Origin: a virus
Virus record (IMG/VR): IMGVR_UViG_3300036760_000150
Location: 64,001-128,000 of that record
Length of the DNA stretch: 64,000 nucleotides
Direction: 5' to 3' (one strand)
Position numbers and translations under genes: made by a program. The notes beneath the pieces are model-generated. The model was not told where the DNA came from and made no database searches. It saw nothing but the letters and a program-made list of their open reading frames with translations. The first letter of the stretch is position 1; each line of letters starts with the position of its first letter. Of this stretch, positions 1 through 8,765 are shown piece after piece.

Positions 1-545
1 TCCATTACCGCATCGGTCATCTCGACGTCGTTGTTCGTGGAGATCAACGCCACCTTACGCATGAGGTCATCTTTGTTCTCGTTGGTTATCCTGACAGCGT
101 TACTTCGTATGAAGGGGACTATGAAGTTCTCAAACGACTTCTCAAGCTCGCGCATGATCTTCTGAGAAGACAGACGTGGATTCTTCTCCAAGTACTCAAA
201 ACCGTTTCGTATTAAGGAGTCCGCCAGGATCGTAGCTGTAGTGGTCCCATCCCCTGCCTCTACGTTAGTTTTCGAGCTACTGTCCCTGGCGGCCTCCAGC
301 ACTACCTGCGCAGTTGGATCTGCGAAGGCCATTGAATTGAACACCGTTATGCCATCTTTCGATAGGTAAGGTCCTAGGTTCTCCTGACGTTCGATGAGAA
401 CTACCTTGCCGTTGGGGCCTAGTGTACTTCCTACCATTGCACTGGCTTTAGCAAGCGTCTTTAAGACTATATCTTTCAACTTTTGATGGTTGTAGGTAAT
501 CGTCTTCGCTGCAGTTTTAGACTTAGCTACCTCTCGGTAGTACAT
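1..545 (-). CDS. groEL: Phage-encoded chaperonin GroEL (5' part; runs off the window's left edge)
   Basis: Manual minus-strand translation from ATG 545 (SD GGGAGG upstream) gives MYYREVAKSKTAAKTI...STLGPNGKVVLIER...SKDGITV...EAGDGTTTATILA, the chaperonin ATP-binding motifs. Absent from the ORF track. Confidence 0.93.
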   Translation of the reverse strand, partial: MYYREVAKSKTAAKTITYNHQKLKDIVLKTLAKASAMVGSTLGPNGKVVLIERQENLGPYLSKDGITVFNSMAFADPTAQVVLEAARDSSSKTNVEAGDGTTTATILADSLIRNGFEYLEKNPRLSSQKIMRELEKSFENFIVPFIRSNAVRITNENKDDLMRKVALISTNNDVEMTDAVM

Positions 546-2156: not shown

Positions 2157-3596
2157 GTGAGATTTGTCCAAAGAGATCCTTTAAAACTTTACGTACACGA
2201 CTGCTCTGAGCAGGAGCGTGTAGACCTTGTTAAGTTCTTGTCTTACAAAGACAAGTCTGTCGAGTACCAGATAAAGAAGTTAAGGTCGAACGCACACTAC
2301 TACAACAGGATGGGTGAGTCTTGGTTCACTGAGCGTATCGAGACGTTGAAGTCTCAGGTCAACAAGTTCGTCATGTACCAAGACGAAGGTGGCATGTACA
2401 CCTTGGCTGGCTTGAAGACCAAGTTGGCAGGTCGTTTCATGAGTGCGACATTCGATGTTGATGTAAAAGTGCCAGAAGGATCATCTCTCCCCTGGTCTAA
2501 GGAGCCTGAGTTTCAACTGCGAGATTACCAGTTGGACGCTAAAGAGAAGTTGCTAAATGTTGTTCATGGTAACGTAGAATTGCCACAAGGATCAGGTAAA
2601 AGCAACATAATTTTGCACGTTGTCAGGGAGCTAGGCCTTAAGACGTTAGTCGTAGCCCCATCTACAAATATCGCAAAGCAGCTATATGAATTGTTTGTAT
2701 CTCACCTATCGAAGAAGTATGTTGGATTCTACGGTGGTGGTAAGAAAGAGACGAAGAAGTTGATAACGGTCTCCATAGCTCAGTCTGTCACTAAGATAAA
2801 TCCTGGATCTGAAGAATGGAAGAACTTGTCATCTTGTGATGTATTCGTGGCAGACGAGAATCATCTGTTTGCTGCCGATACTTTTGCCAAGATTGCAACC
2901 GGTATTGCAGCCGGTTCTGTATGGCGGATGTTTTTCTCAGCTACTCCTGAGAGGAACGATGGTAAAGATATACTTCTACAGGGCGTCATAGGTGATGCTG
3001 TGTGCAAGAAGACTCCAATAGAGTTGATGGAGAGTGGCCACCTTGCGAAGATCAGCACATTAGTCGTAGATGTTGAGTCTGAAGATACATACATGACAGA
3101 CAACGCATTGAAGATGAACCAGACGCATCTATACTCAAACAGGAAGATAGTGAAGTTCATATCTGACGTGTGCTACTCTTCGTTCATGGATGGCGTCCCA
3201 ACGTTAATCTTGGTCGACGAGCACTCACAAGAGGCTCTTCTTAAAGCTCACATGCGTAATACATACGAGTATGCCTCAGGTCAGTCTGACACATCTAAGA
3301 TCGTAAAAGATTTCAACGATGGTAAGATCCTTTGTGTAGTTGGTACCTCTGCGGTTAGCATGGGTACTGACTTCAAACCAGTCAGGTTGACGATCGCATG
3401 GCAAGGCAACAAGTCTGGTACCAAGGTTAAACAAGGGCCTATTGGCCGTAGCACTAGAATTGACGAGAAGAGTGGCAAGAAAGACTGTAAGATAATTGAT
3501 TTCAGGGTCACCAACGCTCCAATGCTTAAACGTCATGCTGATGTTAGGATCAAACACTACATGGAGGTTGGGCCGGTAAGGTACACAAAAATTTAA
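2157..3596 (+). CDS. Superfamily 2 DNA helicase (UvsW/XPB-like)
   Basis: Q motif LRDYQ, Walker A GSGKS, Walker B variant DENH, motif III SAT, motif VI QGPIGRSTR. Confidence 0.88.
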   Translation: MRFVQRDPLKLYVHDCSEQERVDLVKFLSYKDKSVEYQIKKLRSNAHYYNRMGESWFTERIETLKSQVNKFVMYQDEGGMYTLAGLKTKLAGRFMSATFDVDVKVPEGSSLPWSKEPEFQLRDYQLDAKEKLLNVVHGNVELPQGSGKSNIILHVVRELGLKTLVVAPSTNIAKQLYELFVSHLSKKYVGFYGGGKKETKKLITVSIAQSVTKINPGSEEWKNLSSCDVFVADENHLFAADTFAKIATGIAAGSVWRMFFSATPERNDGKDILLQGVIGDAVCKKTPIELMESGHLAKISTLVVDVESEDTYMTDNALKMNQTHLYSNRKIVKFISDVCYSSFMDGVPTLILVDEHSQEALLKAHMRNTYEYASGQSDTSKIVKDFNDGKILCVVGTSAVSMGTDFKPVRLTIAWQGNKSGTKVKQGPIGRSTRIDEKSGKKDCKIIDFRVTNAPMLKRHADVRIKHYMEVGPVRYTKI

Positions 3597-3597
3597 C

Positions 3598-4884
3598 ATG
3601 GACGAGAACAGTTTACTGTACACATACATAAAGGAGTTGAACGAAGAAGCCAAGTTGCTTGATCATGGCGTCATAGACTCGTTGTTTGCGAAGTTGATAT
3701 CTCTTGAGAAGTCATTTGAGGTTAAACTCCGCAAGACTGCGAAAGGTAGAAAGATCTATGCTGTGTTCATCAACATGATCTACAAGTCTAACCGAGGTAT
3801 GATCTCCCTAAGGCCTTACTTCCGTCAACGTGAGCACATGTTCTTGGGTACGATTAACAAAGCGGTGGAGAACAACAAGCCAGAGGAGCTGTATGGTTCC
3901 CCTGTCAACTACAGGTTCATGGCATTTGCGTTAGAATGTCTTAACAGCGCCAACGATGAGAAGAGAAATAGCACATCAGATGCTGGTGAAAATCATCAAA
4001 AAGAACTCGCAGACATACTTGAGAAAGTTAAGATAGTCAGAAATGAGATCGTCAACAGCAACCTGTTCCTCTCTCTAGGACGAGCTAAGATACACAGCCG
4101 ATCGTCTTACAGCTCCTCCATAGATACCTCTGACCTTGTTCAGATCGCCAACGAAGCTCTGATCACTGCTGTCGACAAGTACGTACCCGACTCAAGGTCT
4201 GTGTTCGCACATATGGCTATAGGTCGTATCATAGCTAACTTGATCGCAGAAGGGTCATCACCGTCCTCAGCAACTATAAACTCAAGTGGTAAGAAGAAGT
4301 TGTATAGGATACGGAAAGCACTTGAGAAAGCTCCATCTGCTAACAGAGCAGAGATCGCCAAGATCTTAGAGATCGCAGAGCAGGAAGTCAATGAGCTGTT
4401 AGAGTCAACACATTACTCTAGCCTTGACCAACCGTTGTATGAGGGTGATACTAGGACGTTGGGTGATACTGTAGAGGATGTGAAGACAGACCCGCATAAC
4501 GAAGTGGAACGTCGAGACATGTTCATGAAGCTGTTCAGGGCTTATGATTCATTGTCCGTGATCGAGATGAAAGTTTTAAGATTAAAAGGAGTTAACCCTA
4601 TGCGTACACTCAACAAGCATGTGGCTGTGACTGTTCCTACCTTGAAAAAAATAGAGGAAAGAACGGTGAAAGGGTTCCAGATGTCTGAGAATCTTACCAC
4701 TGCTCTGGTAGAGTCGCAGGTTATGTTTGACTCAGAGAAGTTCAAGGTTGGTGAAGTTGTCTACTTCAGGGCTGATATTAAGAATCACAGTTACATGAGT
4801 CAGAAGTACAACTTCGGTGGTAAGGAGTTCTTGCTCGTGCCAGAGGAAATGGTCGTGGCAGTTAAGAGTGCCGATGAAGCGTAA
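3598..4884 (+). CDS. Phage sigma70-family sigma factor (regions 2, 3, 4.1) fused in frame to a GroES domain
   Basis: Region 2 DLVQIANEALITAVDKY...FAHMAIGRI; region 3 EIAKILEI...SLDQPLYEGDTRTLGD; region 4.1 LSVIEMKVLRLKG; no region 4.2 HTH; last 94 aa are GroES-like. Confidence 0.8.
   Translation: MDENSLLYTYIKELNEEAKLLDHGVIDSLFAKLISLEKSFEVKLRKTAKGRKIYAVFINMIYKSNRGMISLRPYFRQREHMFLGTINKAVENNKPEELYGSPVNYRFMAFALECLNSANDEKRNSTSDAGENHQKELADILEKVKIVRNEIVNSNLFLSLGRAKIHSRSSYSSSIDTSDLVQIANEALITAVDKYVPDSRSVFAHMAIGRIIANLIAEGSSPSSATINSSGKKKLYRIRKALEKAPSANRAEIAKILEIAEQEVNELLESTHYSSLDQPLYEGDTRTLGDTVEDVKTDPHNEVERRDMFMKLFRAYDSLSVIEMKVLRLKGVNPMRTLNKHVAVTVPTLKKIEERTVKGFQMSENLTTALVESQVMFDSEKFKVGEVVYFRADIKNHSYMSQKYNFGGKEFLLVPEEMVVAVKSADEA
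4600..4884 (+). CDS. groES: Co-chaperonin GroES (nested in-frame start)
   Basis: SD AAAGGAG (4585-4591) then ATG 4600. MRTLNKHVAV...KVGEVVYF...YNFGGKEFLLVPEEMVVAV parallels GroES (RPLHDRVIV / KVGDIVIF / EEVLIMSESDILAIV). GroEL lies 4 kb away. Confidence 0.78.
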   Translation: MRTLNKHVAVTVPTLKKIEERTVKGFQMSENLTTALVESQVMFDSEKFKVGEVVYFRADIKNHSYMSQKYNFGGKEFLLVPEEMVVAVKSADEA

Positions 4885-5902
4885 GTACATTCTCGTAGGA
4901 GACTTGCATGCTCAAGTTGGTAACCTTGAGGATACCGAGGTGGTGTTTGATAAAGTAGCTATGCTTGTTCGTGAGCATGGTATCGAGTTTGTTGTTTACC
5001 TAGGAGACATGTACCACACACACTCTGTCTTAAGACAAGAAGTAGTTGAACTTCTCAGACGCAAGCTGCCTGAGACGCGAGGTACATGTCAAGGTAAGCC
5101 TGTGGTACTTGTTGGTAACCATGACTTGGTTGGCCCTACCAGCACGTCGATGAATGCTTGTGAGTTGACTCTGTCTGATGTGGCTGCTGTCGTATCTGAG
5201 CCAGTAGAGGCTGGACCTGTGTTGTACATGCCATTCACCCCTGATAACAGTAAGTTCGTAGAGGAATGTAAGAAGTACTACGGCACATCTCTTGTTGTAT
5301 GTCATCAGACATTTGATGGTTCGCAATACGAGAATGGTTTCTATGCTCCAGGTGGAGTAGATCAAACTTTGATACCACAGAAGGTTGTCATCTCGGGTCA
5401 TATACATAAATCGCAGAAAGTTGGTAAGGTTACATACGTGGGTACCCCACGAGCCCTCACTGCTGCAGAGTGTGATGAAGATAAAGGTCTTGTCATGATG
5501 ACCTACGATGATGTGACGTGTGGTGTTGAGCTTAAGATGTACTCGTTGAACGGATTGGTGAAGACTTACAAGAAAGTTGACGTACAAGAACCAGCTGAGT
5601 TTGATATGCCGCTTTTGAACGGTTGGGGAGCCAAAGACCACGTCATGCTGCATGTGCATGGATCTGAAGACTACTGTGAAACCTTCGTGAAAGATAAGTT
5701 ACCCGTACTAAAACAGCTTCGACCTAAGACGACTATAAAGGTGGCCTGTCATGTAGAGAAAGTTGTTGATGGTAAACCTATCATGGACGTATCCTCTGAG
5801 AGTGTTACGGATTCACTTCGTAAGTATGTAATGGAAGTTGCTGACATGAAGGCGACACTAAGAGAGAGGGTATGGGAGACGATATCAAGAGAACTGAAGT
5901 AG
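4874..5902 (+). CDS. SbcD/Mre11-like metallophosphoesterase nuclease
   Basis: GDLH, LGD, GNHD, CH and GHIH motifs; probable start ATG 4874 overlapping the previous stop. Confidence 0.88.
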   Translation: MKRKYILVGDLHAQVGNLEDTEVVFDKVAMLVREHGIEFVVYLGDMYHTHSVLRQEVVELLRRKLPETRGTCQGKPVVLVGNHDLVGPTSTSMNACELTLSDVAAVVSEPVEAGPVLYMPFTPDNSKFVEECKKYYGTSLVVCHQTFDGSQYENGFYAPGGVDQTLIPQKVVISGHIHKSQKVGKVTYVGTPRALTAAECDEDKGLVMMTYDDVTCGVELKMYSLNGLVKTYKKVDVQEPAEFDMPLLNGWGAKDHVMLHVHGSEDYCETFVKDKLPVLKQLRPKTTIKVACHVEKVVDGKPIMDVSSESVTDSLRKYVMEVADMKATLRERVWETISRELK

Positions 5903-6859: not shown

Positions 6860-8765
6860 ACAGAATTTCATAGATATAAATGCTCTATCGCCCGATCAGC
6901 GCGATGAGATACTAAGAGCACTTGTTACCAAGCGTCTTACCACTCGTGAAGACCTTAGCATGTGGCTTTTGTTCTTCTTAGGCGTTGACCTTGCTGACTG
7001 TACGGTGTCTAGGTTTGCCACTTCAAATCCTTTGGATATGGTGTGGTCGATTTATCAATTTTGGGCAGATAAAACAGTCGAACACCCACTCTCCACCTTC
7101 TACATCGCCGGTCGAGCTTCTCAGAAAACACTATCTTGCGCAGTGCTTCAGGTTTTGTTGCCATTGCATTTTGGTGTTGGGGTTGTTCATTTCGGTGGCA
7201 CTAAAGATCAAGCAGGTCGAGCCTACGAGTACTTCAAGAAGTTCGTCAGTCGACCATACATACGGGGCTACCTCAAAGATGAGCCCACTCAGACTAAGAC
7301 TTTGTTCAACATAGCTGGAATAGATGAGGAGGTTGAGCATGCAAACGCATCGTTCAACGTAGCCGACAGTGAAGTTAAGATCCAGATATTGCCAATATCC
7401 TCCATGTCAGTACAGGGGCCACATGAACCAGTCGTCTCTCTTGATGAACTGTCCAGCCTCACTCCTGACAAGATCAGGGCATATGAAGACGTATCTGGCG
7501 TTCCTATCTCTAACCCTGTAGATGGTCATCCATGGGTTAAATTTGGCATTAGCTCTCGTAAAGGTAAGTACACCGTCATCGAGACTGAGTACGACAGGCG
7601 TGATAAGTCGGGTGTTATTTTTAAGTTCTGGACTGTGTTGGAGAATACCAAGGCATGTCCTGAATCTATCAGGACTAACATACCCCTTGAGATGTACGTA
7701 AATGTCTATGAGAATGTAGCGATACTGCAAGATGCTTACGATCAACTGGAACCTCTCAAGAAGTCACAGTATGAGAAGATACAGGCCTACAAGGGGTGTT
7801 ACACATGTCCCTTGAAGGCACTTTGCGCTGGCGATGCTGCTAAGCAGACGTCAACATGTAAGACTTTGAGGCCCATCACATCGACGATTCAGGAGTTTAA
7901 AGAGGCACCATCTCTTGAGTGGTTCTTGAGTCAGAAGATGTCTCTGACACCAGCTTCAGAAGGTCTGGTGTTGCCCAAGTTCAATCGTGAGAACTTTGAG
8001 AAGACTCCTCGTGAGATCTACAATATCTGGACTGGTACTGATCCTGGTAGGGAGATCACAAAGGAAGAACTTGTCGTTGAGATGATCAAGGCTGGCGTCA
8101 AGAGACATATGGGGCTTGATCATGGTTACTCGCATCCTGCTTCGTTTGTCGTGGTATTTCAAGATCCAGCCGACAACATCTACGTCATGAAAGTTATCAA
8201 GAGGGTTGGTTTGGAGCCTAACGAGGTTGTTGAGCTTGTTGCGAAGTTGAAGAACATATACCATTTAACTCGATGTCACCCTGACACGGCAAGACCTGAT
8301 GTCAACAAGATGTTGAGGAAAGTTATAAAAGTAGGTGATGATTTTGACAAAGACGTTGATAGGGGTATAACGTTGATTCGTGGCAAGATCTCCCCAACCG
8401 TTGGAAGTACTAAGTTCTTCGGTATCAAAGGTGAAGTTGAAGATTTGAGTTTTGAGCTTGAGAGGTATCACTATGATACTGACTCGGCTGGTAAGATCAC
8501 TGAAGAGGTGGTAAAGGAGCTGGATGATGCTATCGACGCGCTCTCCTACGATGCTCAGAACCAGTGGGGCAATAGTGCTGTGAACATACCTCCTGCAGAT
8601 GAAGTCAAGGGCAAAGAAGAGACGCGAGAACAGTACGCTGAGCAAGTTAAGGCTCAGATGAACAACTGGCTGTCCAGTCAGATCAGAGAGCATGTGGTAG
8701 AGCAGAAAGGTAGCGCTGGCAGCACTGGTCAATCGAAGAATTCTGGTGTGGTATGGGATTTCTGA
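6852..8765 (+). CDS. terL: Terminase large subunit
   Basis: Walker A-like AGRASQKT, Walker B VSLDE, RNase H-like nuclease MGLDHGYSHP...DDAIDALSY; upstream of portal. Confidence 0.88.
   Translation: MNEQNFIDINALSPDQRDEILRALVTKRLTTREDLSMWLLFFLGVDLADCTVSRFATSNPLDMVWSIYQFWADKTVEHPLSTFYIAGRASQKTLSCAVLQVLLPLHFGVGVVHFGGTKDQAGRAYEYFKKFVSRPYIRGYLKDEPTQTKTLFNIAGIDEEVEHANASFNVADSEVKIQILPISSMSVQGPHEPVVSLDELSSLTPDKIRAYEDVSGVPISNPVDGHPWVKFGISSRKGKYTVIETEYDRRDKSGVIFKFWTVLENTKACPESIRTNIPLEMYVNVYENVAILQDAYDQLEPLKKSQYEKIQAYKGCYTCPLKALCAGDAAKQTSTCKTLRPITSTIQEFKEAPSLEWFLSQKMSLTPASEGLVLPKFNRENFEKTPREIYNIWTGTDPGREITKEELVVEMIKAGVKRHMGLDHGYSHPASFVVVFQDPADNIYVMKVIKRVGLEPNEVVELVAKLKNIYHLTRCHPDTARPDVNKMLRKVIKVGDDFDKDVDRGITLIRGKISPTVGSTKFFGIKGEVEDLSFELERYHYDTDSAGKITEEVVKELDDAIDALSYDAQNQWGNSAVNIPPADEVKGKEETREQYAEQVKAQMNNWLSSQIREHVVEQKGSAGSTGQSKNSGVVWDF

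Follow-up and report, generated by a model that had tools for sequence, protein, structure and literature searches.

We analysed a 64,000-nucleotide stretch of virus DNA (bases 64001–128000 of the 146.7-kb IMG/VR virus record IMGVR_UViG_3300036760_000150; hereafter the window, to whose numbering all positions refer unless another locus is named) and observed that a single open reading frame (ORF), at 3598–4884, joins a sigma factor in frame to a 94-residue domain for which structural models point to a GroES-type fold. The gene carries within it a second start codon, ATG 4600, preceded by its own Shine–Dalgarno (SD) sequence, and the same fusion is found in nine homologous proteins that form one clade. 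The reading that we favour, and consider rather probable as a whole, is that an ancestral phage had two adjacent genes, that loss of one base at their junction fused them, that the downstream gene codes for a divergent co-chaperonin, and that both the fused chain and the free small protein are still made.

The fusion is shared by one clade of phage sigma factors

An earlier description of the window, made from its letters alone (the original prediction), had sigma regions 2, 3 and 4.1 running without a stop into a domain of 94 residues, and the ORF is indeed open over all of its 428 codons; all the sequence elements that it named were found at the positions given. It had also cautioned that an indel of one nucleotide in either of two short runs beside the junction, which lie exactly where it had placed them (AAAA 4584–4587 and CCC 4596–4598), would separate the two genes. 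A search of 5.8 billion proteins yielded nine homologues of 410–434 amino acids, 47–65% identical to the window protein, covering 98–99% of the query and coming from separate ENA, JGI and Logan assemblies; all nine have the fusion in the same frame and at the same junction. About twenty more relatives, of 325–342 amino acids and 37–45% identity, matched the sigma part only. The short homopolymers, and the fact that the separate-gene relatives differ by one base in the spacer, could be cited for a spurious one-nucleotide deletion in the AAAA or CCC run that joined two genes in this record only; however, nine other fused homologues from independent assemblies, all in one clade, effectively refute a sequencing or assembly indel as the cause, and we regard it as very improbable.

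In a maximum-likelihood tree built from the sigma part alone, the nine fused proteins form a single clade with 100/100 support, nested among the unfused relatives. As the fused proteins are monophyletic, the tree indicates one fusion event that was followed by substantial diversification. No other internal branch of the sigma tree is as long as the stem of the fused clade (0.74 substitutions per site); its length may mean that the sigma part evolved faster once it had been fused, or no more than a gap in sampling.

The only cultured relative is Myxococcus phage Mx1, which has two separate genes; it was also the sole match (28% identity) when phage genomes were searched by tblastn, while megablast of window positions 3000–5500 against the phage collection gave no match. 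A scan of virus contigs with the single sigma protein found no relatives, and the same scan succeeded when the family alignment was used. Scanning metagenomes for further fused genes returned two distant unfused relatives only. One unfused sigma homologue (P0029) is filed at NCBI under a Patescibacteria metagenome-assembled genome, on a contig of 7.8 kb that is probably a phage contig binned there.

A two-gene ancestor and the origin of the fusion

The original prediction had proposed to check whether the sigma factors of related phages stop right after LKG or are fused as well. Both situations occur. The closer homologues are the nine fused ones, and the distant ones (Mx1, over a dozen contigs of IMG/VR and four long ones from metagenomes) stop 2–13 codons past the LKG[V/I/L] motif and are followed by a separate gene, to whose products the 94-residue domain is homologous (BLASTP 7e-14 and 2e-10). 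Separate genes in the distant homologues therefore show where the fusion came from and do not refute it.

The downstream gene of the unfused relatives codes for 93–118 amino acids (154 in Mx1) and starts 4–29 nucleotides past the LKG[V/I/L] codons; in several of these lineages the stop of the sigma gene and the start of the small gene overlap as ATGA. Among the lineages with a close start, the ATG lies 4–8 nucleotides past the Val/Ile codon, most often 5, and in the fused clade this distance is 6. The linker of the window gene is one base shorter than the ATGA-type overlap, of the form 'x-x-stop', of several unfused relatives.

We propose that the ancestor of these Mx1-like phages of ~130–170 kb had two genes, the first for a sigma factor with its C-terminus just past the first region 4 helix, the next for a protein of ~95 amino acids. 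The downstream start would have overlapped or closely trailed the sigma stop, and where it was close, its SD would have been written in the Lys-Gly codons of the sigma gene. In the common ancestor of one clade, a single base may then have been lost between these codons and the ATG, which would have brought the ATG into the sigma frame and abolished the stop; judged from the junction sequences, the fusion appears to be most simply explained by an 'x-x-stop' junction that became one base shorter. The resulting chain would have been retained through divergence down to 47% identity. Initiation at 4600 would yield a free co-chaperonin of 94 amino acids (~11 kDa), and read-through from 3598 a sigma–GroES chain of 428 amino acids (~48 kDa). 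It is plausible that the fused sigma factor still works, because the ancestral sigma C-terminus lies only 2–13 residues past the fusion point.

Overlaps of this kind are the rule between neighbouring genes of these genomes (helicase with sigma, small gene with phosphoesterase). Such an accident is therefore possible at many junctions; the fusion at the sigma/small-gene junction was the one that was kept.

The sigma module ends before region 4.2

The sigma module matched PHROG 351 ('RNA polymerase sigma factor') at 1e-13. The profile of its family aligned to RpoD/SigA chains (E 1e-13) from region 2 (DLIQEGN..AVDKF) through region 3 up to the sequence AKVLRMRFGI of RpoD, where the alignment ends. 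Region 2, the part that binds core polymerase and recognises the −10 element, lies at about residues 165–215 and is weak in Pfam (E 0.024), and the N-terminal ~130 residues are family-specific and without any match. The most conserved stretch of the family is the region 4.1-like helix, in which L319, K325, L327, L329, K330 and G331 are invariant among 18 sequences.

We found no Pfam match to region 4 in the fused protein, and the ~44 C-terminal residues of RpoD that form the helix-turn-helix of region 4.2 have no counterpart in the family profile alignment. Since the alignment to RpoD ends at the equivalent of VLRMRFGI, we conclude from these comparisons that region 4.2, which recognises the −35 element, is absent from the whole sigma family, the window gene included, in agreement with the original prediction of a sigma factor without its −35-reading part. 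The unfused relatives, about 20 in all, likewise stop 2–13 residues past this point with no region 4.2; the sigma factor is therefore best described as a truncated member of the sigma-70 family and not as a full group 1–4 sigma. A 70-residue ORF 8.8 kb before the window (G000:C1:54981-55193; L034:482-694, minus strand) was considered as a free-standing region 4.2. It had no Pfam match and its PDB matches were designer PPR repeat noise, and this candidate was not used.

The junction retains the signals of an internal start

The junction reads TTA AAA GGA GTT AAC CCT ATG in frame, that is, L K G V N P M. The LKGV codons themselves supply an SD, AAAGGAG, ahead of the in-frame ATG 4600, as had been proposed, and the spacing between them is 8 nucleotides. 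We observed the same in-frame arrangement, AAAGGAG-N8-ATG, in all three fused loci for which DNA was at hand (the window, L003 and L004), which are mutually related and make up the codon-level evidence inside the fused clade. At the protein level, the junction L-K-G-V-N-x-M-[R/K]-T-L is common to all nine fused homologues; the Met is invariant, and the second residue of the linker differs among the fused proteins (P, F or L).

Comparison across lineages gave a clearer signal. The Gly codon of the Lys-Gly pair is GGA or GGG in 12 of the 12 lineages in which the downstream start lies within 8 nucleotides, against 3 of the 10 with a farther start (Fisher p 7e-4, or 3e-4 for GGA alone; the lineages are non-redundant but partly dependent). 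Both codons of the window SD are minority codons in this phage, GGA making up 13% of its Gly codons and AAA 32% of its Lys codons. Most of the lineages with a far start have their own SD of the GGAGG type; in three of the far-start lineages a promoter of the sigma-70 type comes right behind the stop codon of the sigma gene. The fused clade retains AAA GGA G, the ATG, and an N-terminus of the type seen in the free proteins, M-[K/R]-T-x-N-K. From these codon choices we conclude that the start signals are under selection, with the codon bias preserving the SD.

As the SD and the ATG are intact in those fused genes that could be read as DNA, ribosomes probably still initiate at 4600, so that a free 94-residue protein and the 428-residue fusion would both be made. 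This was the proposal of the original prediction as well; the conservation of the nested SD and ATG makes it the best reading of the locus, and the two products themselves are deduced from the DNA letters.

Both other frames are closed at the junction, by TAA at 4583–4585 and TAA at 4593–4595. With a −1 shift at the A run, translation would therefore stop within three codons, leaving a sigma factor about as long as the ancestral one; in the junction segment 4582–4595 we saw no canonical slippery heptamer.

The near-consensus sigma-70 promoters of the far-start lineages lie directly after the sigma stop (LKGV-x-x), at L018:4009-4050 (with the same in L019 and L020), L035:958-1000 and L036:2449-2490; that of L018 reads TTGACT-N17-TATAAT. 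In these three distant lineages the downstream genes appear, from their sequences, to be transcribed separately and not to be translationally coupled.

The C-terminal module is predicted to have a GroES-type fold

Ordinary sequence searches did not place the 94-residue domain. The Pfam Cpn10 model (PF00166) had no match in it or anywhere in the genome, a word-based homologue search with the domain found nothing, and profiles of the small protein gave nothing significant against the PDB, where GroES appeared at E 0.8–0.9, below noise of the SH3/S1 type. Among 150 members of its family, Pfam reported no consistent family, two of the 150 matching PF00166 weakly (E 0.036). The exhaustive profile search did reveal the family itself, with 1050 cluster representatives at E <= 1e-3; almost every one is a free-standing protein of 85–130 amino acids.

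Structure prediction was more informative. The AlphaFold2 model from the 150-member alignment has a mean predicted local distance difference test score (pLDDT) of 83, with a low-confidence loop at about residues 12–34. When this model was compared with the PDB by Foldseek, the top 33 matches listed were all Cpn10/GroES or T4 gp31 (best E 3.8e-4, probability 1.0), and the GroES-like domains of medium-chain reductases came after them. VIA-align, which is independent of Foldseek, placed human Hsp10, bacterial GroES, T4 gp31 and plastid Cpn20 first (Z 6.5, 6.5, 6.0 and 5.7; 79–85 residues aligned at a root-mean-square deviation of 5.2–6.1), the next match having a Z of 4.3. An earlier, shallower model of the domain gave an identical ranking of fold matches.

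A direct profile–profile comparison with GroES by hhalign was colinear over the full length, with E 4e-4 and a probability of 35%. This alignment sets G25-F-Q-M of the domain on G24-I25-V26-L27 of GroES, which contains the GroEL-binding tripeptide of the mobile loop, and has its gaps at the GroES roof hairpin. Gly25 is nearly invariant in the 150 family members, and the middle residue of the tripeptide is polar in the window protein, as it is in 23% of viral GroES proteins (PMC5649160). Viral GroES proteins with polar residues in the tripeptide or with the roof hairpin deleted, and viral pairs of GroEL and GroES, have been documented (PMC5649160). In an Atlas language-model search, 25 of the 30 named neighbours were viral clusters with some Cpn10-annotated members, a result that is weak by the criteria of the tool.

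The models lead us to assign a GroES-type fold to the module, the Z scores and probabilities being individually modest. The GroES match that had been predicted for the C-terminal part is borne out by fold and by profile–profile comparison and not by Pfam; as the Pfam result is negative and the profile–profile link only suggestive, we file the module as GroES-like and not, by sequence, as a member of PF00166. The 94-residue protein is probably a very divergent co-chaperonin of the Cpn10/GroES type. It would be a beta-barrel with a flexible loop carrying a Gly and a hydrophobic residue at the position of the GroEL-binding loop of GroES, and without the roof hairpin. As such it would most likely serve the phage's own GroEL, encoded 3–4 kb upstream.

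Does the fused protein have a function of its own?

Several points weigh against the account given so far. The sequence evidence for Cpn10 is weak, as the missing Pfam match, the PDB profile E of 0.8 and the hhalign probability of 35% indicate, and the fold Z scores of 6–6.5 fall in the range that VIA-align itself calls 'middling'. Judged within the fused clade alone, the conservation of the SD is thin, since it comes from three related genes, and the junction Met may owe its conservation to an ordinary role in the protein. That both products exist is likely, but it is read from sequence. Two phage GroELs, EL gp146 and that of AR9, work without a co-chaperonin (PMC7185714, PMC9598537). Finally, no sufficiently complete relative has one of the sigma factor, the small protein and Cpn60 without the others, and such constant co-occurrence therefore cannot tell which of the two, GroEL or the sigma factor, is the partner of the small protein.

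This last point leaves room for a different role of the small protein. It could be an accessory module of the sigma factor that takes the place of the absent region 4.2, perhaps through contacts with RNA polymerase or DNA, in which case it would be no chaperonin lid and the fusion would be the functional form. Region 4.2 is absent throughout the sigma family, conservation within the family is highest in the last helix, and in most relatives the small gene comes immediately after the sigma gene; moreover, a fusion that has been kept for long is a classic 'Rosetta stone' hint of physical interaction. However, the best structural matches of the module are true co-chaperonins and not domains that bind DNA or RNA polymerase, and a Gly with a hydrophobic residue in the flexible loop is the signature of GroEL binding. 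Overlaps between adjacent genes, too, are common throughout these genomes. Two lineages have other genes between the sigma gene and the small gene, which remains joined to the phosphoesterase gene; this is a mild argument against an obligatory pair of sigma and small protein. The SD and the ATG would, in addition, have no reason to persist if the fusion alone mattered. On balance, we consider a role as an accessory module unlikely.

Alternatively, the sigma–GroES chain and free GroES might assemble into mixed heptamers, by which the sigma factor would be oligomerised and sequestered on, or released from, the phage GroEL, tying transcription to folding capacity. Both products that this would need are plausible, and a clade that has diversified still carries the fusion. 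In co-chaperonins of the tandem Cpn20 type, an N-terminal fusion is compatible with ring assembly, and proteins of this type are among the structural matches of the module. But ring formation, mixed rings and tethering to GroEL find no support in this analysis, nor do the coupling of late transcription to capsid folding and the late nature of the sigma factor that the original prediction had proposed; the retention is explained equally well by a harmless fusion whose internal start supplies the free lid, and separate genes suffice in most relatives. We rate this coupling as slightly less probable still than the accessory role.

More broadly, the fusion may be functional and not merely tolerated, the GroES-fold module physically linking a sigma factor that lacks region 4.2 to another machine, either through mixed GroEL lids, with sigma availability following chaperonin occupancy, or as the missing C-terminal domain of the sigma factor on RNA polymerase. 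We regard this as doubtful.

Comparison with known systems

The module resembles T4 gp31, CocO of RB49 and the GroES proteins of viromes (Marine et al. 2017, PMC5649160) in being a small (~95–110 residues) phage-encoded GroES fold with a predicted flexible loop and a conserved Gly. As in these co-chaperonins, the loop Gly is followed by hydrophobic or partly polar residues, and standard methods do not detect so low a similarity to cellular GroES. Like gp31 it has a shortened roof hairpin, and as on many virome contigs, a phage GroEL is encoded in the same genome. Unlike the genes of this group, however, the window gene does not lie beside groEL but downstream of a sigma gene, to which it is fused in frame, and its product belongs to a separate large family (the 1050 cluster representatives above) that Pfam Cpn10 does not recognise.

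The sigma module finds its closest parallel in T4 gp55, which acts with gp33 in late transcription and is likewise a sigma-family protein without the −35-reading region 4.2; promoter recognition must therefore rest on the −10 side, on other proteins, or on both. Unlike gp55, the window sigma retains regions 2 and 3 and the first helix of region 4. It is also much larger than gp55. No partner resembling gp33 was identified, and whereas gp33 is helical and binds the flap, the attached domain here is a beta-barrel with the likeness of a co-chaperonin.

Long and short products that share a C-terminus, the short one from an internal ATG with its own SD in the coding sequence, are familiar from T7 gene 4A/4B, lambda C/Nu3, phiX174 A/A*, infB and cheA. 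The nested start of the window gene differs from these in being, on our reading, the relic of a separate gene captured by the loss of one base, so that the products would combine unrelated functions. In plastid Cpn20 and tandem Cpn10 fusions, a Cpn10 domain with an N-terminal polypeptide still fits a co-chaperonin ring, and the Cpn20-type structure 7ekq is among the top structural matches of the module. There, however, the partner is a second Cpn10 domain, and in the window it is a transcription factor of 334 residues.

There are precedents for phage sigma factors, for GroEL/GroES genes in phages and for nested starts in frame, each taken singly. In the literature searched we did not find a sigma factor joined to a domain of co-chaperonin fold and kept across a diversified clade, and the announcement of the Mx1 genome holds no discussion of the sigma and small genes. 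The locus offers a clean, datable case in which the loss of a single base at an overlapping junction would have given a two-in-one gene that kept its old start signals. It also reveals a large GroES-like phage family, unrecognised by Pfam, that stands beside a sigma factor without region 4.2 and alongside a phage GroEL wherever the context was examined. Should the fused protein have a function of its own, it would be a new kind of link between transcription initiation and protein folding; should it have none, it would be a natural test of how extra C-terminal mass is borne by a sigma factor and extra N-terminal mass by a GroES subunit.

Gene neighbourhood of the fused gene

Table 1. Features of the fused gene and its neighbours (window positions)
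Feature	Position	Strand	Basis and remarks
Phage Cpn60/GroEL gene, 5' part	1..545	-	PF00118; 615 amino acids from ATG 545, continuing upstream of the window
DEAD/ResIII helicase gene	2157..3596	+	Abuts the sigma gene upstream; order kept in all relatives
Fused ORF (sigma module + GroES-like module)	3598..4884	+	428 amino acids, open throughout; nine fused homologues (410–434 amino acids, 47–65% identity)
Sigma module, residues 1–334	3598..4599	+	Pfam, PHROG, profile against PDB RpoD/SigA; unfused relatives of 325–342 amino acids
Sigma region 3, residues 243–300	4324..4497	+	Pfam PF04539 (Sigma70_r3), 29.9 bits against a cut-off of 25.3
Region 4.1-like helix ending in invariant L-x-L-K-G	4531..4593	+	Aligned to AKVLRMRFGI of RpoD; end of the ancestral sigma
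Shine–Dalgarno AAAGGAG, built from the Lys-Gly-Val codons AAA GGA G	4585..4591	+	8 nucleotides before in-frame ATG 4600–4602
Two-codon linker Asn-Pro, doubling as SD-to-ATG spacer	4594..4599	+	Junction DNA of 20 or more loci
Nested in-frame ORF/C-terminal domain, 94 amino acids	4600..4884	+	Predicted divergent Cpn10/GroES fold: model, fold matches, hhalign, BLASTP
Predicted mobile loop, domain residues 12–34	4633..4701	+	Low pLDDT in both models; Gly25 then Phe-Gln-Met at 4672–4683
Calcineurin-like phosphoesterase gene	4874..5902	+	PF00149; likely start ATG 4874, 11-nucleotide overlap with the fused ORF; neighbour in all relatives

The Cpn60 gene lies divergently upstream of the sigma gene (Table 1). 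From its start to the sigma start the distance is 3.0 kb, and to ATG 4600 it is 4.0 kb, which agrees with the divergent GroEL gene, 4 kb away, of the original prediction. The ORF is open from TTG 620, and its probable start, from alignment to relatives, is ATG 545 (MYYREVAKSK...). Full-length alignment of the protein with E. coli GroEL gave 26% identity (E 1e-48). The Pfam Cpn60 model aligned to the equatorial parts only (model positions 3–156 and 302–487), which argues that the apical domain is divergent. A Cpn60 gene was present in 13 of the 15 records of relatives, the two without it being 11% and 31% fragments. No other recognisable Cpn10 was found by Pfam in the genome of the window phage.

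For the phosphoesterase gene, the program-made ORF list gives GTG 4817 as the start in place of ATG 4874. Of the two lineages with genes between the sigma gene and the GroES-like gene, L018 has at L018:4299-4850 a protein of 183 residues with repeated G-x-W/Y-x-x-G (MORN-like by eye), together with an ORF of ~92 codons, and L049 has an ORF of 64 codons (7810–8004). On the other side of the fused gene, L004 has between the helicase gene and the fused sigma gene a gene for Endonuclease VII (PF02945; L004:4498-5004), which the window and L003 do not have at this place.

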